The notes beneath the pieces are model-generated. The model was given only the letters and a program-made list of their open reading frames with translations. It did not search any database and was not told the origin of the DNA. The position numbers and the translations under genes were made by a program. Below are positions 2-48,260 of a DNA stretch of 64,000 bases, piece after piece. Position 1 is the first letter of the stretch; every line of letters begins with the position of its first letter. This DNA is from an uncultured Candidatus Peribacteria bacterium (GTDB lineage: Bacteria > Patescibacteriota > Gracilibacteria > Peribacterales > Peribacteraceae). Location: positions 64,488 through 128,487 of the forward strand of contig CAZHQF010000002.1 in assembly GCA_964534205.1 (NCBI GenBank), given 5' to 3'.

Positions 2-3000
2 TACGACGGCGCGCAGACAGGCTGGCGGCAAATCCGTCTGAACGGAGAGTGGATTCCCATCGAGGTGCTCCAGCCGCAGAATGCAGGTCTCTCCCGCGGG
101 TACTGTGCGACCGGAAACGCCGCCACAAGCTGTACGGAGACCCAGAACAATTTCCGGTGCTCGGGGATCAATCTTCTCATGAATCCCGTGCCGATAAACG
201 GACCAACGCGCCCTGTCACCCCTCTTACGGGAGTGTTCTTTCCCGCGCCGTTCGCTCCGGGAATGATCCTCGATCGACGCAGTGACACCGTTGCCCAGGC
301 GGCGTGCAGATATTATGTGGACCCTCAGACGCCGTTCCCGTGTTGCCAGCCGCGCCGGTGGAACACGGAAGCATCGTTTGTCAGCGTTCCGTACAGCCAG
401 TGTCTCGGTATGGCTTTTGATACGGAGCCGATCAGCCCGGATCTGAGAAACATTTACACCCGAAATGACTGCTTCATGGGGACGTTCGTGGTTCCGGGTT
501 TCCGTGGAGCGGACCCCGCGCCCGCGATGTCCATCGGTGACTATCATCTGTGTTGCGATCCGCAGGCCGATGACGGTCCCAATGGGCCCAACCGCACGGC
601 CAGACCGAACATCGGCCGCTGCTCCTACAGTCTGGAAGACAACATCATCGCCTTCAATACAGGAACGCTCTTTGCGGGTGTCGGTCGTCCCATTGCTACC
701 ATCAATCCCGTTCTCAAGCCCGATGCACCCGGCGACACCGGTCCCTCGCATTTCGAAATCGAGCCGCGTGCGCCGTACAGCCATGAATACATCCACTACC
801 TGCTGCATTACGAATTGCTGCAGGCTGACTTCTTTGCACCCCGCACAGGTCCAAGTGAGTTCAATCCCGCAAAGACGGTCGTGCGGATCAAAACGCCAAA
901 CCCCCAGCGCCTGAGCCGCATCATGGGATTACTGAGTGAAACACTGCCGATCCCCACAACCATCGAGGAATATAATGCGGACCCGCGTTCACTCTTTAAG
1001 CTCGTCCCGGATGGAGTGAATCCTCCAGCATGGAAAGCCTATGTACGGCCGGATCAGCCTCCGGGCCTTCCGCCGGACGGCATCCCTGTTCCGTTGCCGA
1101 TGAGCGCATCCGCGCATGCACTTGCGAGCGTGCGCAGACTTGGTGTTGTGGTGGGACTAGCGAATGCCGATGCGAATGGTTGGTTCTATCCCATTGCGGG
1201 TCTGGATGACTGGCGCAAAACCGAGCGGGCGCTGCAGCTGCTGCTCTATCCCCGTCAGGCAAGCAGGGGGGCTGCTCCGGCTCCAAATCGCGCTGTGAAT
1301 TCCTGCGGCGACCAAAATTCCGCGTCGTATCCGCATGCGAATTTTACCATTACGGCGGCAACAACCCCTCAGCAGGTACAGGAGAAAATCAATGAATGTG
1401 CCACCCGGTGCGGTCTCGTTTTCTGCGTATTCACCCGTTCCGGAGAAGGGGTTGCCGCCAGCTGCCAGCGCGGTGCACTGACCATTCCCAATGATGTTCT
1501 CGCGCAGCAGCCTCCCAACCGTTGCTTTGCGGATAACCAGAAGACTACGCATAACCGTCTGATGCCGAACTACTGTGCTCCGCATGCCAACCTTCCGCGC
1601 CCCCCCAACCCCGTCACGCTGCAGACGCAGAACCAGTACATCGCATCTCTCAGCGCACTCGGTTCTTCGCTGTGGGGTACGCGAAAATCCGATGCGGAGT
1701 ACCAGAATCTGCAAGATTGTTCTGCGGCTGCCACTCCTTGTTCCATTATCGTACGCAGCGCCACTGCATCGAGCAGAAGGTCCTTTGCAGGCGGCGGACA
1801 GCAGGGGCAGCAGGCAGGACCTGCGGGCGGCCCTGCCGGACAAGGAGGTGGGAACCTTCCCGGTGGAGGACCGCTCGGGGGACCGCTCGGAGGGCCGGTT
1901 GGCGGTCCGGTGGGAGGGCCGGTGGGTGCTAACGCAGGAACTCCCGCTGGCGGAACACCAACCGGTGCCACGCCCGGGACCGGTCCCGGGACAACACCCG
2001 GCGGAAGTACCTCACCAAGCGGCAACCAGCAGGGCGGTGCACGGTCATCCCCTCCGGGGACATCCACCTCTCCGGGCACCTCCACCGTTGGCCGCACATC
2101 GTCCAGAGCATCATCCGTAAACCTCATCGCTCCGTTCCCTCTTTCCAGTTCATCCTCGTCTACACGCCCGGCAAGTACCTCCTCCTCGCCCTTCAGTTTC
2201 ACAATTCCGTTCGGCAGTTCATCGTCCATAGGATCCAAAACTGGCAGTGCGTCCTCCGGCAGGAGTACGTCGTCCGTTTCCTCCAAGACCGCTTCCACCT
2301 CTTCGGCTTCGTCCAAATCTGCGTCCACCTCTTCGACTACGTCCAAATCCGCGTCCATGTCTTCGGGTGCCTCCAAGTCGGCGTCCGCGTCGTCGGTACG
2401 CTCCGGCACCTCGTCTTCGGCATCGAAAACATCGTCGGTTTCTTCCGGTACAACGTCTTCGCAGCACTCATCCGCATCGTCGATCATCATCGTCTTCAAC
2501 GGCTCATCGTCCAGATCCAGTTCGGCATTGAGTGGAGCCTCTTCCAGTCGTTCCGGTTCTTCCACGGCCGGTGGCTTCAGCTCCTCGCAAAAACCCGGCA
2601 CCAGCTCTGCAGGCGGTTCCACGGGAACAACCGGAGGAAACACGGGGACTACCGGCGGTACGGGTACGAGCGGAACAACGGGTGGAACCGGCACCACCGG
2701 TGCCACAGGGGCGACGGGGGGAAAAACCGGTGGTACGGGAACGACAGGGGGTTCAACCGGAACAACCGGCGGGACCGGCACTAGCGGCGGGACAGCCGGA
2801 ACAACGGGCGGCAGCACGGGGACAACCGGTGGGTACAAGGGCGCGACGGGCGGCACTGCGGCCACAACCGGCGGGTTCACCGGCACGACAGGAGGTCAGA
2901 GCGGGGGAACATCGCGCACGTCGTCGAGTATCAGCGGCGGATCCACGGGAACGACCGGCGGTTCTTTCTTTTCTGTCCGCAGTTCCTCCTCCATCTCTTC

Positions 3001-3913
3001 GTATTGCCCGCCCGAGATCTGCTTCCCGTGCTCTTCCAATGATCAGTGTCCGAGCAGGCAGTGCCTCAACGGCAAATGCACGCCGCTCTGCGGCAACGGG
3101 GTTGTGGACGCAAACGAAGTCTGCGACGACGGCAACACGAACAACGAGGATGCCTGCACCAACGCCTGCAAGCTTGGATCCGACGAACTCTGCAACACAC
3201 ACGGACAGTGCACGACGGGTCTCTGTCTCAACGGTCATTGTTCCGCCTGCAGTACCAACAGCCAGTGCCCCGCGGACACTCTCTGTCTCTCCCGCGCGTG
3301 CGTGGTATCTCCGGTCTGCGGAAACGGTATCATGGAATGGACGGAACGGTGCGACGACGGCAACCGCGATGACAACGATTCCTGCAGCAATCTCTGCCGC
3401 AGAGGCAACGGCGAATCCTGTTCGGTCAACCGCGACTGTGCATCGCTCTCCTGCCAGGACGGTTCTTGTGCAGCGTGCTCATCCGCCGACCGGTGTGGCG
3501 GGACTCCATGCGTCGACGGCCGCTGCGCAGACGGCTGCGGGAACGGCACGGTCGATCCGGGAGAGCAGTGTGATCAGGGAGCGATGAACAGCGATATCAT
3601 TGCTGATGTCTGTCGCACCGACTGTGCGCTCTTCAGAGTGGGCGACGGTGTGAAGGACGGGAATGAGGAGTGTGACGACGGCAACACCGTCTCCGGTGAC
3701 GGCTGCGACCGCTTCGGGCGTCTGGAAACGGGGAGCACGTCCGGCCGTCCCGTGGTCGTCGATCTCTCGCCGACCAAGAATCCCTACCCGGGTTCGGTGA
3801 TCAACGGCGGTAACCGTCCCAACTCGCTCTCGGAAGAAGGCCCTGCCGCGGTGGCCGTGATGGCCGCAGGAGGTGCAGCAGGGTGGGCGTGGATGCGGCG
3901 ACGACGAAAATAA
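2..3913 (+). CDS. Giant secreted/surface protein, 5'-partial. It has a Cys-containing N-region, a Gly/Pro then Ser/Thr/Gly low-complexity stalk, Cys-rich CGNG..E.CDDGN modules, and a C-terminal hydrophobic helix plus RRRRK.
   Basis: ORF 65..3913. The same frame has no stop from nt 2, so the start lies upstream of the window. Modules seen: CGNGVVDANEVCDDGN, CGNGIMEWTERCDDGN, CGNGTVDPGEQCDQG, GDGVKDGNEECDDGN. Tail: PAAVAVMAAGGAAGWAWMRRRRK. Confidence 0.85.
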   Translation, partial: YDGAQTGWRQIRLNGEWIPIEVLQPQNAGLSRGYCATGNAATSCTETQNNFRCSGINLLMNPVPINGPTRPVTPLTGVFFPAPFAPGMILDRRSDTVAQAACRYYVDPQTPFPCCQPRRWNTEASFVSVPYSQCLGMAFDTEPISPDLRNIYTRNDCFMGTFVVPGFRGADPAPAMSIGDYHLCCDPQADDGPNGPNRTARPNIGRCSYSLEDNIIAFNTGTLFAGVGRPIATINPVLKPDAPGDTGPSHFEIEPRAPYSHEYIHYLLHYELLQADFFAPRTGPSEFNPAKTVVRIKTPNPQRLSRIMGLLSETLPIPTTIEEYNADPRSLFKLVPDGVNPPAWKAYVRPDQPPGLPPDGIPVPLPMSASAHALASVRRLGVVVGLANADANGWFYPIAGLDDWRKTERALQLLLYPRQASRGAAPAPNRAVNSCGDQNSASYPHANFTITAATTPQQVQEKINECATRCGLVFCVFTRSGEGVAASCQRGALTIPNDVLAQQPPNRCFADNQKTTHNRLMPNYCAPHANLPRPPNPVTLQTQNQYIASLSALGSSLWGTRKSDAEYQNLQDCSAAATPCSIIVRSATASSRRSFAGGGQQGQQAGPAGGPAGQGGGNLPGGGPLGGPLGGPVGGPVGGPVGANAGTPAGGTPTGATPGTGPGTTPGGSTSPSGNQQGGARSSPPGTSTSPGTSTVGRTSSRASSVNLIAPFPLSSSSSSTRPASTSSSPFSFTIPFGSSSSIGSKTGSASSGRSTSSVSSKTASTSSASSKSASTSSTTSKSASMSSGASKSASASSVRSGTSSSASKTSSVSSGTTSSQHSSASSIIIVFNGSSSRSSSALSGASSSRSGSSTAGGFSSSQKPGTSSAGGSTGTTGGNTGTTGGTGTSGTTGGTGTTGATGATGGKTGGTGTTGGSTGTTGGTGTSGGTAGTTGGSTGTTGGYKGATGGTAATTGGFTGTTGGQSGGTSRTSSSISGGSTGTTGGSFFSVRSSSSISSYCPPEICFPCSSNDQCPSRQCLNGKCTPLCGNGVVDANEVCDDGNTNNEDACTNACKLGSDELCNTHGQCTTGLCLNGHCSACSTNSQCPADTLCLSRACVVSPVCGNGIMEWTERCDDGNRDDNDSCSNLCRRGNGESCSVNRDCASLSCQDGSCAACSSADRCGGTPCVDGRCADGCGNGTVDPGEQCDQGAMNSDIIADVCRTDCALFRVGDGVKDGNEECDDGNTVSGDGCDRFGRLETGSTSGRPVVVDLSPTKNPYPGSVINGGNRPNSLSEEGPAAVAVMAAGGAAGWAWMRRRRK
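2276..2395 (+). repeat. Four tandem 30-bp (10-aa) units inside the giant gene, encoding xSSK[ST]AS[TMA]SS
   Basis: Protein reads SSKTASTSSA / SSKSASTSST / TSKSASMSSG / ASKSASASSV. The DNA units align codon by codon. Confidence 0.8.
2614..2905 (+). repeat. Degenerate ~21-bp (7-aa) tandem units encoding TGG-x-TGT (Gly/Thr stalk)
   Basis: The run GGSTGTTGGNTGTTGGTGTSGTTGGTGTTGATGATGG... continues for about 95 aa. Confidence 0.75.
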
Positions 3914-42166: not shown

Positions 42167-43813
42167 ATGCATGCGCTGTTCGACCCCGTTTTTTCCTCAG
42201 TGCGTAGGGCGGTTTCCCGCACTGCGGCATTCGTCGTTGTCCTTTCCCTCGCTCTTCCGTCTCCGGCCTTCGGTGCGGATTTCACGCTGAAAGGTGCCGA
42301 TAACGTGCCTGTCACGCGCGGGGATTTTCTCCGTGCGGTGACCGACGCACTCGATATTCCGCTGCCGAAGCTCAACCGCACGTCTCTGCCGGCGGGAGTC
42401 ACGCGCACCATGGCACCGTACGTGTCGGTTGCCCGCACCAAGGGTGCGCTCGCGGTCTTCGGCGATGCGATTGAGCTCAATAAAACCATCACACGCATCG
42501 AGGCTGCCGTGGTGCTCACAAAGATGAGCGGGAAGGGGATTGATGCGAGGAGAACCGTCCAGACTTTCCGGGATGTCCGCGGTGATCTCCGGAAGGAAGC
42601 CGCCGCTGTTGTCGTTCAACAGGGCTGGATGCGAGGCAACAAGGGTCTCTTTGGTGCGGGTAAAGTGCTGCGCACCCGGGAGGCCAAGCTCATCCTCAAA
42701 GCTCTGGAGGTCACGCTGAATGCCGATCCGAATTCGGTGAGGATTGAGGTGCCTGTCATTGAATTCAAGCCGACGATTTCCGATGAGCGCAAGAAGCAGG
42801 AGCTCCTCAAAATCCTCTCTGAGAAGTATCTGTACGGAGACAAGCTGGGATCGCTTGCGACGAGTTCGGGCTCGCTCGAGAACGTGCTCGATCCTCTCAA
42901 GGACCCCTACACCACGTACTTCAACGAGGACGACACCGAGAATTTCTTCCAGACGCTCAAGGGCGACCTGGAGGGCATCGGTACCACGGTGGAACTCGTC
43001 GACGGCAAAATCCTGGTGATCGCGCCACTGAGAGGATCACCCGCTGAAAAAGCCGGAGTGCTTCCGAAAGATGAACTGCTTGCCGCCAACGGCGTGAGCT
43101 TCAACGGCAAATCCCTCAACGAGGCGGTCAACCTGATCCGCGGCCCGAGCGGGAGCACGGTGGTTCTGAGGATCCGCAGAGACGTGCAGGAGTTCGAGCT
43201 GACGATCGTGCGTCAAAAGCTGCATATCCCGGATATCGACGTGGTGTACCAGGACGGGATCGCCGTCGTGCACGTCAACCAGTTCGGTGAGGACGCGCTC
43301 TACCGCAGCCGCGAGTATATGGCTGCCGTTGCCGAGAAGAAGCCCAAGGCCATCATCCTCGATCTACGCAATAATCCCGGCGGCTACCTGGATGCCGCGG
43401 GGTCGCTTGTGAGCGCGCTTCTTCCCGCTGATTCTGTCTACGTGGTGATCCGGGAGAAGGCTTCCACCTACACGAACAAGACAAGGCACGCGCCGCTGAT
43501 CGATTCGTCCGTTCCGGTGATGGTACTCGTGAACAAGGGTACGGCCTCCGCCGCCGAAATTGTCGCCGGAGCTCTGCAGGATACCGGTCGGGCCACGATC
43601 ATCGGTCAGAAAACGTTCGGCAAGGGTACCGTGCAGGAGGTGATCGAGTTCACGGACAACACCAGTCTCAAGTACACGCTGGCCGAGTGGCTCACTCCCG
43701 ACCGTCACCCCATCGATAAAGTGGGCGTGCAACCGGACATCGTCACGGAGCTTTCCACAGATAGAAGCGTTGATGCGGAGATGCAGCGGGCGATGAAGGA
43801 GCTGGGGAGGTGA
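42167..43813 (+). CDS. S41 carboxy-terminal processing peptidase with a PDZ domain and an N-terminal SLH-like region
   Basis: LDLRNNPGGYL, LVNKGTASAAEIVAGALQD, FGKGTVQ. PDZ: GSPAEKAGVLPKDELLAANG. Signal peptide. Confidence 0.88.
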   Translation: MHALFDPVFSSVRRAVSRTAAFVVVLSLALPSPAFGADFTLKGADNVPVTRGDFLRAVTDALDIPLPKLNRTSLPAGVTRTMAPYVSVARTKGALAVFGDAIELNKTITRIEAAVVLTKMSGKGIDARRTVQTFRDVRGDLRKEAAAVVVQQGWMRGNKGLFGAGKVLRTREAKLILKALEVTLNADPNSVRIEVPVIEFKPTISDERKKQELLKILSEKYLYGDKLGSLATSSGSLENVLDPLKDPYTTYFNEDDTENFFQTLKGDLEGIGTTVELVDGKILVIAPLRGSPAEKAGVLPKDELLAANGVSFNGKSLNEAVNLIRGPSGSTVVLRIRRDVQEFELTIVRQKLHIPDIDVVYQDGIAVVHVNQFGEDALYRSREYMAAVAEKKPKAIILDLRNNPGGYLDAAGSLVSALLPADSVYVVIREKASTYTNKTRHAPLIDSSVPVMVLVNKGTASAAEIVAGALQDTGRATIIGQKTFGKGTVQEVIEFTDNTSLKYTLAEWLTPDRHPIDKVGVQPDIVTELSTDRSVDAEMQRAMKELGR

Positions 43814-43925
43814 GCGGGGCAGCAGGCAGCAGGTGTAAAGGTAGGGAACAGACGTTCCTTACCTTTTTGCGTAGCAAACCTCCCTCTTAGCCCCTTGTCT
43901 GCTTTTGCAGTGTCCCGTAGGATGA

Positions 43926-45323
<1,398 letters not shown>

Positions 45324-45931: not shown

Positions 45932-46207
45932 ATGTCCTCTCAGAACAACGACCGCGCCGCCCTCTTCTCCGCATACAGTCTCGTCAGCGAGCTTGGTTTT
46001 ATTATCGCCGGTCCGGTTGTTTTGCTCGGGGTCGGTGGTGCCTATCTCGATAAATATCTCGGCACCTCGCCGCTCTTCCTGCTGCTGGGCTTCCTGCTCT
46101 CGTTTGTCGTGTCCGCGATGGGGGTGTGGAACATCATCAAACGCCTCAATGCACAGCAGGAGGCACTTGATGCCGCTAAAAAAACGCAGACGGCCCAGAA
46201 GAACTGA
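45932..46207 (+). CDS. atpZ: AtpZ/AtpI-family small membrane protein (ATP synthase gene 1-like)
   Basis: GFIIAGPVVLLGVGGAYLDKYLGTSPLFLLLGFLLSFVVSAMGVWNIIKRL. Confidence 0.7.
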   Translation: MSSQNNDRAALFSAYSLVSELGFIIAGPVVLLGVGGAYLDKYLGTSPLFLLLGFLLSFVVSAMGVWNIIKRLNAQQEALDAAKKTQTAQKN

Positions 46208-46235
46208 ACCGCCTGCGTTGTCATTCACTAACAGA

Positions 46236-47348
46236 TTATTGGAGCCAGGGCTCGATGGTGACCCGGAGGTTCCAGAGGATTTCTGCCATGTCTCCGCGCG
46301 TGATCATCGTGCCTGCAGAGACACCGGCCGGCATTACCTGCTGTTCATTGAGCGCGTTGATGTACGGCACGTACCACTCAACGCCTGCCTGCGTTTTCAC
46401 ATCCAGGCCCATCGTCAGTGCAACAATCTTTGCTGCCTCAGCAGCATTGATCGTTGCGCTCGGGCGGAATGAGCCATCGGGATACCCGCGGATGATGTTT
46501 TCCTCTTTTGCGACGCACACGTACGCGGCGTACCACTCCTTGCGCGATACATCAGAGAAGAGAAGATCTCTATTGTTATTGAGACATTCATACGAGTAGT
46601 CACCGCTGTACATTGCTCCAACAAGCATCTTCACGAACTCTGCGCGGGTGATGAGCCTTTCGGGGCGGAACGTGCCATCCGGATAGCCCTGTACGATGCC
46701 GTGTGTCTTCACAAAGACGATAGCTTCAAAGATGGGATGACGCTCGGAGACATCGGTGAATGGCCGGTCAGCGGTCGCATCACCACCGTGCGTGAGGCAG
46801 GGCGGAGCGAAGTAATTGATCACGTGGCCGTCCTCAGTGCAGCTGGGATGTGTGGTTCCGTCCATGCACACGTACGGCTTGCACTCATCGGAAATAGTTG
46901 AAGATGACGAACTGGAGGACGACTGGGGAAGAGTCTTGAGATAGGCCAATGTTTCCGTGGCGTTCCTTATGCTTGCGGTCCCAGTACAGAGGCCAGTCCA
47001 GAGCTCATTATTGTAAGAGGATGACGTCGTGCCGTCCCGCGTATACGCAAAGACAACGTACTCACCGCCTTCGGAAAAGTTGAAGCCACAGGTGGCAGAA
47101 TCCTGATGGGAAAGAATCAGCACAGAGCTCCCCACATCTCCTTTCCACTCCTGATCGACATCGAATGTGTAGCCGATGATGCGGTTGCGGTCAGGCTCAC
47201 TGACTGCCGTGACCGTGCCTGAGAACACGACGTCTGCACGTTCATAGTGCTCAGCGGGTGTGGACATCATGCACGAACACGCATAAGCCGTGGTGGCGAC
47301 CAGAAACGCGCCGATGGCGGTACTGAGAGAAAGGAGAGGGTGTTTCAT
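46236..47348 (-). CDS. Secreted protein: TIMP-like (CSC N-terminus) OB/NTR domain + Ser linker + Cys-rich segment + three SLH repeats
   Basis: MKHPLLSLSTAIGAFLVATTAYA|CSCMMSTPAEHYERADVVFSGTV...CGFNFSEGGEYVVFA. SLH repeats: FTDVSERHPIF...GIVQGYPDGTFRP, FSDVSRKEWY...IIRGYPDGSFRP. Confidence 0.75.
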   Translation of the reverse strand: MKHPLLSLSTAIGAFLVATTAYACSCMMSTPAEHYERADVVFSGTVTAVSEPDRNRIIGYTFDVDQEWKGDVGSSVLILSHQDSATCGFNFSEGGEYVVFAYTRDGTTSSSYNNELWTGLCTGTASIRNATETLAYLKTLPQSSSSSSSSTISDECKPYVCMDGTTHPSCTEDGHVINYFAPPCLTHGGDATADRPFTDVSERHPIFEAIVFVKTHGIVQGYPDGTFRPERLITRAEFVKMLVGAMYSGDYSYECLNNNRDLLFSDVSRKEWYAAYVCVAKEENIIRGYPDGSFRPSATINAAEAAKIVALTMGLDVKTQAGVEWYVPYINALNEQQVMPAGVSAGTMITRGDMAEILWNLRVTIEPWLQ

Positions 47349-47451
47349 AGATACGGGGGAAGGTAGCACATGACCTACTACGGACAGATGGCCCGTGGGT
47401 AACACCATTGTCTGACGCATGGAGAATGCCCTTCTGACCGTTTTTCCACCC

Positions 47452-47480
47452 TTGCTTCCTTTTCACGCTGTCCTTAGAAT
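47452..47480 (+). promoter_or_regulatory. Sigma70-type promoter upstream of atpB
   Basis: TTGCTT, 17 nt, TAGAAT. The -10 ends 12 nt before the ATG. Confidence 0.55.
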
Positions 47481-47492
47481 CCCCGCACTCTT

Positions 47493-48260
47493 ATGGAGAT
47501 CCACGCACCCACCCTCGCGTCCGAGACCGTGGCCCACATCGGGCACTTCGGTATCCGCAACACACTCATCATGTCGTGGCTGGCGATGGCCGTACTGATT
47601 CTTGGCGCACTCTCGCTCCGAGGAACGGGGTACAGGCTGATCCCCGGACGTCTCCAGGCGATGGGCGAGCTGGTCGTGGAGGGTCTTTTCAATTTTTTCA
47701 ATTCGATCCTGGGCGACGAACGCCGTACCCGCAAGCTCTTCCCGCTCGTGGCGACGATGTTCCTGTTCATCATCATCGCCAACTGGATGGGTATCCTGCC
47801 GGGAGTCGGCAGCATCACCATTCTCGGTGAGCACGAGGGGCATGAGATGGCACTCCCGCTCTTCCGCTCCATGAACGCGGATATGAACGTCACGCTGGCC
47901 TTCTCCATTGTCTCCATCATCACGGTCCAGATCCTCGGCTTTGCCGCTCTCGGGTTCCGCGGTCACCTGGGCAAGTACTTTGTGGCTCCGTGGAAGAAGC
48001 CCTACGGCATCGGTACCTTTGTGGGCATCCTGGAATTCATCGGAGAGTTCACCCGCATCGTCTCCTTTTCCTTCCGTCTGTTCGGAAACATCTTTGCCGG
48101 AGAAGTGCTACTGATGGTCATCTCCGCCATTGTCCCGTACGTGGTCCCGGTCCCGTTCTACGGGCTCGAGATCTTCGTGGGCTTCATCCAGGCTCTCGTC
48201 TTCTCCATGCTGACCCTGGTCTTCATCTCCATGGCGGTCACGCCGCATGAGGCACATTAA
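47493..48260 (+). CDS. atpB: Fo ATP synthase subunit a
   Basis: 255 aa, polytopic. FSFRLFGNIFAGEVLL contains the conserved Arg. Confidence 0.93.
   Translation: MEIHAPTLASETVAHIGHFGIRNTLIMSWLAMAVLILGALSLRGTGYRLIPGRLQAMGELVVEGLFNFFNSILGDERRTRKLFPLVATMFLFIIIANWMGILPGVGSITILGEHEGHEMALPLFRSMNADMNVTLAFSIVSIITVQILGFAALGFRGHLGKYFVAPWKKPYGIGTFVGILEFIGEFTRIVSFSFRLFGNIFAGEVLLMVISAIVPYVVPVPFYGLEIFVGFIQALVFSMLTLVFISMAVTPHEAH

Follow-up and report, generated by a model that had tools for sequence, protein, structure and literature searches.

A TIMP-like N-domain on a putatively wall-anchored SLH protein encoded in the ATP synthase cluster of Peribacteria

Described TIMP-like proteins and the protein of this locus

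The N-domain of the animal inhibitors TIMP-1 to TIMP-4 is represented by Pfam PF00965 and MEROPS I35, with structures such as PDB 2tmp, 3ma2 and 3cki. In the window, by which we mean the whole 64-kb stretch of DNA analysed here, a gene was found whose product shares with these proteins the mature Cys-Ser/Thr-Cys start, an OB barrel (TM 0.76), a match of its family profile at E=5e-10, and the motifs (F/Y/W)KG, SAxCG, E(Y/F)(L/V)(I/V) and LC. It also has the equivalents of Cys1-Cys70 and Cys3-Cys99, and these disulfides are predicted. Unlike the animal TIMPs, the window protein is of bacterial origin and has only two of the three N-domain disulfides, and in place of the C-terminal TIMP domain it carries a poly-Ser linker followed by a 4-Cys module and by SLH repeats, three in number. 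Bacterial or prokaryotic TIMPs were not mentioned in the text of the TIMP-evolution literature that was checked.

The only experimentally studied bacterial TIMP-like protein is Tim of Listeria monocytogenes (LMRG_00714), the partner of the metzincin Mtz, and the 2021 paper describing it noted that bacterial TIMP-like proteins were not on the literature record (PMC8235301). Tim is, like the window protein, bacterial, envelope-tethered and TIMP-like in fold. Unlike the window protein, it resembles TIMPs in structure only (Phyre2), has an N-terminal lipid anchor, is encoded together with a metzincin that cleaves it, and has a phage-related origin (PMC8235301). Surface or periplasmic inhibitors of metzincins are also represented by the potempins of Tannerella forsythia (PMC9890683) and the alkaline protease inhibitor of Pseudomonas. 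PotA has an OB-type beta-barrel, as predicted for the window N-domain (PMC9890683), but both kinds of inhibitor are unrelated to the window protein in sequence and act by other mechanisms. Moreover, potempins are lipoproteins, each linked genetically to the protease that it inhibits (PMC9890683), and such a linkage was not found here.

In bacteria, TIMP-like proteins also stand alone: about 180-200 aa long, they comprise a signal peptide, a CSC domain and a C-terminal TM helix, and they occur for example in Viridibacillus arvi, Paenibacillus sediminis, Pontibacillus marinus and Aerosakkonema. The window N-domain is 30-45% identical to these proteins and has the same A-x-A↓CSC site and four invariant Cys, whereas the tether to the wall by SLH repeats distinguishes it from members with a membrane helix and agrees with the SLH anchors on other enzymes of this genome. 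No experimental characterisation of the stand-alone members was found in the literature searched. Some of them carry the automatic UniRef name 'Tissue inhibitor of metalloproteinase'. As for the anchor, Sap of B. anthracis and SpaA of P. alvei have a three-SLH pseudo-trimer with a TRAE-type motif, as does the window protein; unlike in Sap and SpaA, the SLH unit is C-terminal here, and a small inhibitor-like head replaces the S-layer crystallisation domain.

Parts of the protein and homology of its N-domain to TIMPs

The ORF list and translation gave a 370-aa protein encoded on the minus strand at 46236-47348. It begins with MKHPLLSLSTAIGAFLVATTAYA, followed directly by CSCMMSTPAEHYERADVVFSGTVTAV, and contains ATCGFNFSEGGEYVVFA further in. 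This agrees with the sequence-only reading, whose architecture (signal peptide, CSC, poly-Ser, Cys-rich part and three SLH repeats, antisense to atpZ/atpB) was present in the ORF. In two wastewater contigs, the called protein was 99-100% identical to the window protein. A longer alternative ORF starts with an ATG at 47420, but 47348 appears to be the best start because the orthologues have an MKHP start in common. The features of the locus are as follows.

46236..47348, minus strand: whole gene of the secreted TIMP-like/SLH protein, stop codon at 46236-46238 (ORF and translation)
47280..47348, minus strand: predicted Sec type I signal peptide spanning residues 1-23, with MKH, a hydrophobic core and AYA (sequence and family statistics)
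46923..47279, minus strand: TIMP-like N-domain, residues 24-142, 119 aa (family profile, AF2, Foldseek)
46899..46922, minus strand: poly-Ser linker of 8 Ser, residues 143-150 (sequence; low pLDDT in the full-length model)
46788..46886, minus strand: 4-Cys spacer module, residues 155-187 (alignments A3/A4)
46266..46760, minus strand: three SLH repeats, residues 197-245, 264-314 and 325-361 (Pfam and Foldseek)
46176..46219, minus strand: intrinsic-terminator-like hairpin, 16-bp stem and T5 (terminator scan)
47349..47492, no strand: divergent intergenic region from the TIMP-SLH start to the atpB start, 144 bp (coordinates)
45932..46207, plus strand: atpZ/atpI-like gene (ATPase_gene1), convergent neighbour (Pfam PF09527, E=1.2e-10)
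47493..48260, plus strand: atpB (F0 subunit a), divergent neighbour (Pfam PF00119, E=1.5e-45)

The signal peptide of the window protein ends in AYA↓CSC, with the canonical A-x-A directly ahead of Cys-Ser-Cys. The cleavage site was judged by rule and by family conservation. Among 124 motif-matched members, position -1 was Ala in 95%, position -3 was A, V or T and position -2 was bulky or variable, while residue 2 was Ser in 87% and Thr in 6%. A C-x-C motif lay inside the first 90 residues in 146 of the 156 collected proteins, mostly at positions 16-45. Cleavage by a type I signal peptidase is predicted to expose Cys1, as the sequence-only reading had supposed; profile, Pfam, fold and the family-wide A-x-A↓C-S-C arrangement agree on a TIMP-like N-domain bared in this way.

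Homology to the N-terminal inhibitory domain of animal TIMPs extends over the 119 residues behind the signal peptide. Searches with a single sequence were too weak, and a family profile (A1) was built from 77 members. The window protein alone scored 11.8 bits against Pfam TIMP PF00965 (E=0.2; gathering cut-off 23.1) and matched Pfam NtA just as weakly (E=0.19), and its N-domain alone gave sub-threshold TIMP/NtA matches or none in Pfam, NCBIfam and PDB. Profile A1 matched 15 distinct TIMP-1/-2/-3 sequences in PDB at E=4.9e-10 to 1.5e-3, the best being TIMP-2. No other protein was significant (E>=0.6 throughout, agrin only at E>1), and each alignment ran from residue 1 of the mature inhibitor to the partner of Cys3. 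Pfam TIMP was matched by 37 of the 77 members (best E=1.2e-9), and three SLH-fused proteins exceeded the 23.1-bit cut-off, namely P0008 (25.4 bits), P0041 (28.1 bits) and P0009 (30.2 bits), the last being the syntenic L006 orthologue. In the HMM check of the TIMP kinship proposed earlier, orthologues passed the Pfam cut-off and the window protein alone did not. Similarity to TIMP is far above chance at the family level (profile, Pfam) with the window sequence singly sub-threshold in Pfam, and on these alignments its TIMP family membership holds by transitive homology.

The residues expected of a TIMP lie at the equivalent places. Cys24 (Cys1), Ser25, Cys26 (Cys3), Cys87 and Cys121 align with Cys1, Ser2, Cys3, Cys72 and Cys101 of TIMP-2. 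In domain numbering, C1, C3, C64, C98, G21, K46 and G47 were invariant across the 77 members, and the four invariant Cys are aligned with the positions of the Cys1-Cys70 and Cys3-Cys99 disulfides of TIMP-1, with the bonds themselves predicted. For the third N-domain disulfide (Cys13-Cys124/126), Cys was absent at the aligned positions, where 'FCNAD' of TIMP-2 corresponds to 'leRAD' in the family. The C-terminal TIMP domain with its three further disulfides is likewise absent, residues 143-370 being linker, 4-Cys module and SLH repeats, and in the orthologues the Pfam TIMP match spanned only positions 2-117 of the 183 in the profile. N-TIMPs inhibit even in isolation, and N-TIMP complexes were among the Foldseek matches, so the mechanism does not depend on the C-terminal domain. 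Three segments, ACSC..STPAE.Y.RADVVFSG, ESSATCG and LCSGT, were conserved in the orthologues, and the whole protein was only 41-46% identical. Several secreted proteins of the window are rich in Cys, which supports a capacity to form disulfides.

The AF2 model of the N-domain (pLDDT 92.4, pTM 0.86) contained strands E17-26, 34-46, 52-58 and 73-80 and helices 8-14 and 108-114. The 20 best Foldseek matches in PDB comprised 16 TIMP-1/-2/-3 chains, with TM up to 0.76 (N-TIMP-1, 3ma2_C), and 4 chains of agrin NtA, and identity with TIMPs across the structural alignments was only 13-21%. NTR modules of PCOLCE, meteorin and complement followed as lower matches. In its predicted structure the N-domain folds as a TIMP-type OB barrel, which answers the comparison with the TIMP OB fold proposed in the sequence-only reading. 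The fold is shared with the NTR superfamily, but the domain has four Cys against the conserved six of NTR and is strictly N-terminal in the family, where NTR modules are mostly internal or C-terminal, and by sequence TIMPs are much closer to it than any other NTR protein.

The spacer behind the linker has its Cys at C156, C161, C170 and C184, in the pattern C-x4-C-x-DG-x6-C-x-EDGH-x-INYF-x3-C. One copy is present in the window protein and two in the orthologues, and the module also occurs in the non-syntenic homologue L015. No Pfam match was found for it. A copy of the CDDGN/DUF4215 module abundant in this genome was considered and rejected, since the patterns differ and a Pfam match is absent. 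The SLH repeats matched Pfam SLH at E=8.3e-29 and carry the motifs ITRAE, INAAE and ITRGD. With the full-length model, Foldseek found the SLH unit of B. anthracis Sap (3pyw, E=1.7e-7, target-normalised TM 0.73) and SpaA-SLH (0.75), and the repeats are similar to ones that recognise pyruvylated secondary cell-wall polymer. The wall anchoring proposed earlier is supported by these matches, and the repeats probably serve as a cell-wall polymer anchor. SLH1 contains a mosaic patch that varies at strain level, and neither the window nor the compared loci yielded a donor for it. A sortase, also SLH-anchored, is encoded in the same window.

The bacterial family comprises about 4,100 clusters at 50% identity, and almost all members have A-x-A↓C-S-C right after the signal peptide and the four invariant Cys. 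In all fusions examined, the TIMP-like domain was N-terminal and the partner C-terminal, the partners being SLH, a TM helix, serpin, dockerin with Kunitz, a T9SS tail, beta-propeller and HEAT. One partner is a complete serpin (E=7e-116) and another a Kunitz/BPTI domain (31.7 bits; cut-off 21). The occurrence of the same domain in fusion with a serpin and with a Kunitz domain favours a metalloprotease-inhibitor reading.

Possible inhibition of metalloproteases and competing readings

We consider it fairly probable that the gene product is a bacterial TIMP of one domain, displayed on the cell surface, and from the sequence an activity as a metalloprotease inhibitor is plausible. Signal peptidase I would free Cys1, and two disulfides would connect the C-D and E-F loops with the N-terminal strand in a rigid wedge like that of TIMP. 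The wedge would enter the active-site cleft of a zinc endopeptidase of the metzincin type, where the free alpha-amino group and carbonyl of Cys1 would chelate the zinc and Ser2 would point towards the S1' pocket. The protein would sit about one linker length above the wall, and the S-layer and surface proteins could be shielded from metalloproteases secreted by other organisms in a protease-rich habitat (wastewater).

Defence against foreign proteases is favoured over control of an own enzyme because no cognate protease gene linked to family members was found in the loci sampled. An adjacent metalloprotease was seen in none of the seven sampled neighbourhoods of stand-alone members, and neither a metzincin motif nor a recognised secreted metalloprotease was found in the 64-kb window. 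The sole HExxH-type match of note in the six frames of the window was HEYIH in a giant surface protein (65-3913). The N-terminal 700 aa of that protein had no match in PDB or NCBIfam, and a Pfam search of it and nine other large ORFs of the window did not find a secreted metalloprotease.

A broader reading, which we put forward tentatively, is that the large bacterial family may consist of genuine single-domain TIMPs inhibiting zinc endopeptidases through a free Cys1 in the manner of animal TIMPs, with the animal TIMP/NTR module as an offshoot. The animal module would then derive from an ancient prokaryotic inhibitor family and not be a metazoan invention. Lineages would exchange the tether (TM helix, SLH, T9SS tail or dockerin) or add serpin or Kunitz modules, and the Peribacteria protein would be a wall-mounted shield against foreign metalloproteases. 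The window offers a concrete, easily expressed 119-residue bacterial homologue from a family of thousands, with every hallmark of the mechanism that a sequence can show. If it is active, the origin of the TIMP/NTR module would move into bacteria, small metalloprotease inhibitors with two disulfides would form a new class, and protease defence would become a cell-surface function in candidate-phyla-radiation bacteria.

The N-domain might instead be a non-inhibitory NTR-type head on an SLH stalk, used for surface adhesion or ligand binding in contact with a host, prey or matrix. Agrin NtA and the PCOLCE NTR, meteorin NTR and complement C345C modules are also significant fold matches, many NTR-fold modules are non-inhibitory (for example netrin, C345C and the laminin-binding agrin NtA), and the single sequence matches NtA and TIMP about equally in Pfam. 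Candidate-phyla-radiation bacteria are thought to rely on cell-cell contact, which would suit such a head, as would the other modular surface proteins encoded in the window and the lack of a linked protease in the seven neighbourhoods. We nevertheless regard this as rather unlikely. At the profile level all 15 significant PDB matches are TIMPs, the domain is fixed at the signal-peptidase site with Ala(-1), Cys1, Ser2 and Cys3 near-invariant, and the family includes the serpin and Kunitz inhibitor fusions. The TIMP mechanism accounts for this constraint on the N-terminus, for which NTR modules located internally or C-terminally have no need.

A further reading takes the protein as a substrate or regulator in wall remodelling, along the lines proposed for the Mtz/Tim pair, in which a metzincin would cut the head off its anchor and the fragment would alter the wall instead of serving as a protective inhibitor. 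The precedent is that Listeria Tim is cut by its partner metzincin and makes cells more sensitive to agents that target the wall (PMC8235301), and the window protein is likewise tethered, through a long flexible linker. Such a role is improbable here: Tim is TIMP-like in structure only, has its lipid anchor at the N-terminus and always occurs with mtz, whereas the window protein has a signal-peptidase-I site and significant TIMP homology, and no metzincin gene was found next to the TIMP-SLH gene of the window or of its syntenic relatives.

Position in the ATP synthase cluster

The gene lies antisense between atpZ (ATPase_gene1) and atpB, a position that the sequence-only reading took as the sign of a recent insertion. 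This claim found no support, since the same antisense slot is filled in three other Peribacteria genomes and one metagenome contig. Across these four relatives, AtpB is 72-85% identical and the TIMP-SLH protein only 41-46%. The atpZ-atpB arrangement was kept in four relatives, but the gene is missing from this position in a more distant genome of the Peribacterales, whose atp cluster is permuted in the same way. In that genome atpZ and atpB are 2 nt apart, and for this reason the gene is still to be seen as an insertion relative to the ancestral state. It is an old, clade-specific insertion, and its position is a stable lineage marker and not a sign of mobility. The gene would have entered the atpZ-atpB gap in the ancestor of one Peribacteria subclade and been retained there as an independent antisense transcription unit. 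A mobile element or recent insertion was also rejected on the local sequence: no flanking direct or inverted repeats were found around the gene, synteny is conserved, and the GC content of the gene (54-55% against 57-63% nearby) is inside the local range without a clear composition break.

No functional link to ATP synthase was seen. That the protein is a lipoprotein processed by signal peptidase II, or that its CSC binds metal, with a part in assembling ATP synthase or supplying ions, is very improbable: a Cys immediately after the signal peptide, the atp-cluster position kept in four relatives and the nature of atpZ as a putative Mg2+/Ca2+ transporter gene would fit, but lipobox-like residues at -3 to -1 occur in only 4 of the 124 members, with -2 often aromatic or charged, and the lipoprotein was rejected on these statistics; the counterparts of Cys1 and Cys3 in TIMPs are disulfide-bonded, and the partners of both are invariant; the protein is predicted to be extracellular and wall-bound, from a gene on the opposite strand with its own terminator; a 40%-identical homologue of the same architecture adjoins dnaX, 5-FTHF cyclo-ligase and glyA, not atp genes; and the distant Peribacterales relative has the permuted cluster without the gene.

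The own terminator and the opposite strand also mark the gene as an independent unit. The terminator-like hairpin begins 17 nt past the stop codon, inside the coding sequence of the convergent gene atpZ, at its 3' end. At the other end, the TIMP-SLH gene and atpB must both start from the 144-bp divergent region, in which a simple scan gave no match to the sigma-70 consensus. Two short metatranscriptome RNA contigs, which carry no strand information, match perfectly and cover the 3' end of the gene together with the 3' end of atpZ.

Family membership of the TIMP-SLH protein

The TIMP-SLH gene lies reversed within the ATP synthase cluster, in the order S41 peptidase, atpD, atpC, atpZ, [TIMP-SLH reversed], atpB, atpE, atpF, atpH, atpA, atpG. 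The description given in the sequence-only reading was accurate in every point. The parts and neighbours of the gene are:

46236-47348, minus strand: TIMP-SLH open reading frame, 370 codons
MKH, hydrophobic core, AYA: signal peptide, Sec type
Residues 143-150: poly-Ser linker, eight Ser in a row
Residues 155-187: 4-Cys module, 33 residues with four Cys
Residues 197-361: three SLH repeats
45932-46207: ATPase_gene1/AtpZ gene, neighbour to which the TIMP-SLH gene is antisense
47493-48260: atpB, neighbour on the other side of the antisense gene

A longer frame starting at 47420 is possible, and 47348 was taken as the best start because MKHP is common to the orthologues. The predicted mature chain begins with CSCMMSTPAEHYERADVVFSGTVTAV directly after AYA and further on contains ATCGFNFSEGGEYVVFA, then GLCTGT.

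The N-domain alone (residues 24-142) matched Pfam TIMP (E=0.2, 11.8 bits, cut-off 23.1 bits) and agrin NtA (E=0.19) below threshold, and this single sequence had no match in NCBIfam or PDB. When 1.84 billion representative proteins were searched exhaustively, 4,109 related clusters scored E<=1e-3, of which 172 reached E<=1e-10. When 77 bacterial members were aligned, C1, C3, G21, K46, G47, C64 and C98 were invariant, and Ser2 and the Ala at -1 were conserved in at least 90%. Searched against all PDB sequences, the profile of this alignment retrieved 15 distinct TIMP-1, -2 and -3 sequences, the best at E=4.9e-10 (TIMP-2 N-domain, 2tmp) and the weakest at 1.5e-3, and apart from TIMPs there was no match under E=0.6. 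All the alignments began with the first residue of the mature inhibitor, and the invariant bacterial cysteines fell on Cys1, Cys3, Cys72 and Cys101 of TIMP-2, which pair in the two disulfides forming the inhibitory ridge. Pfam TIMP was matched by 37 of the 77 members (best E=1.2e-9), and three SLH-fused relatives exceeded its cut-off, namely P0009 (the orthologue in the same slot of assembly L006, 30.2 bits), P0041 (28.1) and P0008 (25.4).

With the alignment as input, AlphaFold2 gave a confident model of the N-domain (pLDDT 92.4, pTM 0.86). TIMP-1, -2 and -3 chains made up 16 of its 20 top Foldseek matches in PDB (TM up to 0.76) and agrin NtA the other four, followed by PCOLCE, meteorin and complement NTR modules. 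The profile, Pfam, model and fold matches therefore establish homology to the TIMP N-domain at the family level, as the sequence-only reading had proposed from the CSC N-terminus, and the window protein is a divergent member of a bacterial TIMP-like family.

UniRef automatically names some family members of cultivated Bacillales and cyanobacteria "Tissue inhibitor of metalloproteinase", and PF00965 is annotated for some, so the family assignment is already in databases. We found no experimental or comparative work on the bacterial family in the literature, and the texts of two papers on TIMP evolution, one a review, did not mention bacterial or prokaryotic TIMPs. Bacterial TIMP-like proteins were stated to be absent from the record in the Listeria Mtz/Tim paper (PMC8235301). 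In contrast to TIMP-SLH, Listeria Tim resembles TIMPs in structure only, is lipid-anchored and is paired with a protease (PMC8235301). The potempins are unrelated and would be functional analogues if TIMP-SLH is an inhibitor (PMC9890683). We class TIMP-SLH as a putative SLH-anchored, two-disulfide, N-domain-only TIMP.

Predicted exposure of Cys1 and probable inhibitor function

Of the 156 proteins from the first two family searches, 146 had C-x-C among their N-terminal 90 residues, usually between positions 16 and 45. Among the 124 members fitting the strict motif, residue -1 before Cys1 was Ala in 95%, -3 was A/V/T, and -2 was variable and frequently aromatic or charged; residue 2 was mostly Ser (87%) and sometimes Thr (6%). 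This pattern is a predicted signal peptidase I signature. Lipoprotein processing was rejected on the rarity of lipobox-like sites (4/124). Cleavage of the window protein is predicted between AYA and CSC, which would expose Cys1 as had been supposed. In all fusions examined the TIMP-like domain came first behind the signal peptide, with variable partners always C-terminal. This placement, a constraint that internal NTR modules do not have, is predicted by the TIMP mechanism, which depends on Cys1 having a free alpha-amino group.

TIMP-SLH probably acts by the predicted metalloprotease-inhibitor mechanism. The mechanistic hallmarks readable from sequence are all present, and orthologues that otherwise share only 41-46% identity keep the three ridge segments. 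Two relatives are compound protease-inhibitor architectures, which also count for this function: P0005 (L098 227-2044, 605 aa) joins a TIMP-like N-domain to a complete serpin (E=7e-116), and P0126 (370 aa) joins one to a dockerin and a Kunitz/BPTI domain. Their logic is analogous to that of animal multi-inhibitor proteins. Against this function, TIMP-SLH lacks both the C-terminal domain and the third N-domain disulfide of TIMPs, and some proteins with the NTR fold are not inhibitors.

The gene surroundings also count against it. No metalloprotease neighboured the stand-alone family members in seven neighbourhoods (Viridibacillus, a complete Peregrinibacteria genome, Paenibacillus, Aerosakkonema and three metagenome contigs), no metzincin motif was found in the 64-kb window, and Pfam detected no secreted metalloprotease in ten of its large ORFs. 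As these searches linked no cognate protease to the family, we favour a putative role in defence against metalloproteases secreted by other organisms; the source habitat, wastewater, is a protease-rich community.

The window also encodes a giant secreted protein (65-3913, ~1,282 aa). Cys-rich DUF4215 repeats lie towards its C-terminal end, and a HEYIH (HExxH) motif occurs ~260 residues from the beginning of the stop-to-stop frame. The N-terminal 700 residues had no match in Pfam, NCBIfam or PDB.

Position in the ATP synthase cluster

The sequence-only reading had suggested a recent insertion, and this was not borne out. Three Candidatus Peribacteria assemblies (L004, L005, L006) and one JGI contig (L001) share the order (S41)-atpD-atpC-atpZ-[TIMP-SLH reversed]-atpB-atpE-atpF-atpA, with AtpB 85, 84, 72 and 84% identical to that of the window, respectively, and TIMP-SLH itself only 41-46%. 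No flanking repeats were found, and the GC content of the gene is slightly below that of its neighbours, inside the local range. The Peribacterales relative L008 (AtpB, present only in part, 65% identical) has the same permuted atpD-atpC-atpZ-atpB order, with 2 nt from the atpZ stop to the atpB start, while a Falkowbacteria genome has the usual order atpB-E-F-A-D-C. With L008 as the single outgroup, the simpler reading is that the gene was inserted into an older state in one subclade, though L008 may instead have lost it. On the simpler reading the insertion is old, clade-specific and stably inherited. A homologue on metagenome contig L015, 40% identical and of identical architecture including the 4-Cys module, follows dnaX, 5-FTHF cyclo-ligase and glyA. 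The S41 C-terminal processing peptidase gene (42167-45323), directly upstream of atpD, keeps its position in L004 and L006, so the syntenic block is larger than the atp genes.

A terminator-like hairpin (16-bp stem and T-run, 46176-46219) begins 17 nt past the TIMP-SLH stop and sits in the last codons of plus-strand atpZ, and the convergent units therefore overlap by ~30 nt. The divergent spacer between the TIMP-SLH start and atpB is 144 bp. The gene is predicted to be a transcription unit of its own, and no observation links it to the working of ATP synthase.

The exact TIMP-SLH sequence was present in two wastewater DNA runs. Metatranscriptome contigs matched 46163-46328 and 46127-46261, across the convergent ends of atpZ and TIMP-SLH, with zero mismatches, and a third wastewater match lay inside atpB (48030-48192). 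These matches show transcription by the organism in the wastewater community; as the contigs carry no strand, the first two are not assignable to either atpZ or TIMP-SLH.

Wall anchor, 4-Cys module and variation among relatives

In the full-length model the C-terminal 175 residues were confident, and the linker and 4-Cys module were weak. The C-terminal part matched the SLH domains of B. anthracis Sap (3pyw; E=1.7e-7, target-normalised TM 0.73) and P. alvei SpaA (target-normalised TM 0.75), which bind pyruvylated wall polymer. Together with the motifs ITRAE, INAAE and ITRGD in the three repeats, this supports the proposed wall anchoring. The window also encodes a sortase with SLH repeats, so this lineage seems to tether enzymes through SLH habitually. 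Elsewhere among bacteria, the TIMP-like domain mostly belongs to ~180-200-aa proteins that a C-terminal membrane helix anchors.

The 4-Cys module (C-x4-C-x-DG...EDGH-x-INYF...C) is present once in the window protein and twice in three orthologues, and had no match in Pfam. It is not the DUF4215/CDDGN repeat common in this genome. Cys255 (46585-46587, YECL) and Cys278 (46516-46518, YVCVA) of the SLH region are invariant in the four closest orthologues and may join SLH1 to SLH2 by a disulfide, an unusual feature in SLH domains.

Over 3,785 nt, the locus of a second wastewater strain (L002) and the window had 62 differences, 49 of them inside a 127-nt patch in SLH repeat 1 (46680-46806; L002 1545-1671). 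Divergence was ~39% in the patch and 0.36% elsewhere; 17 residues of SLH1 were altered, and the atpB, atpC and atpD products were 100% identical. The patch looks like a gene-conversion or recombination tract, and neither the window nor the compared loci yielded a donor.

At another locus (L017 2902-4515), the TIMP-like head of a 537-aa SLH protein is degenerate and has lost the N-terminal Cys-x-Cys (AASSVVADFEQADVVF); the two partner cysteines are kept, a long C-terminal extension is added, and a second SLH gene adjoins. A metagenome contig (L095 4432-6151) carries three tandem stand-alone TIMP-like paralogues of 189, 194 and 188 aa in an operon-like row.
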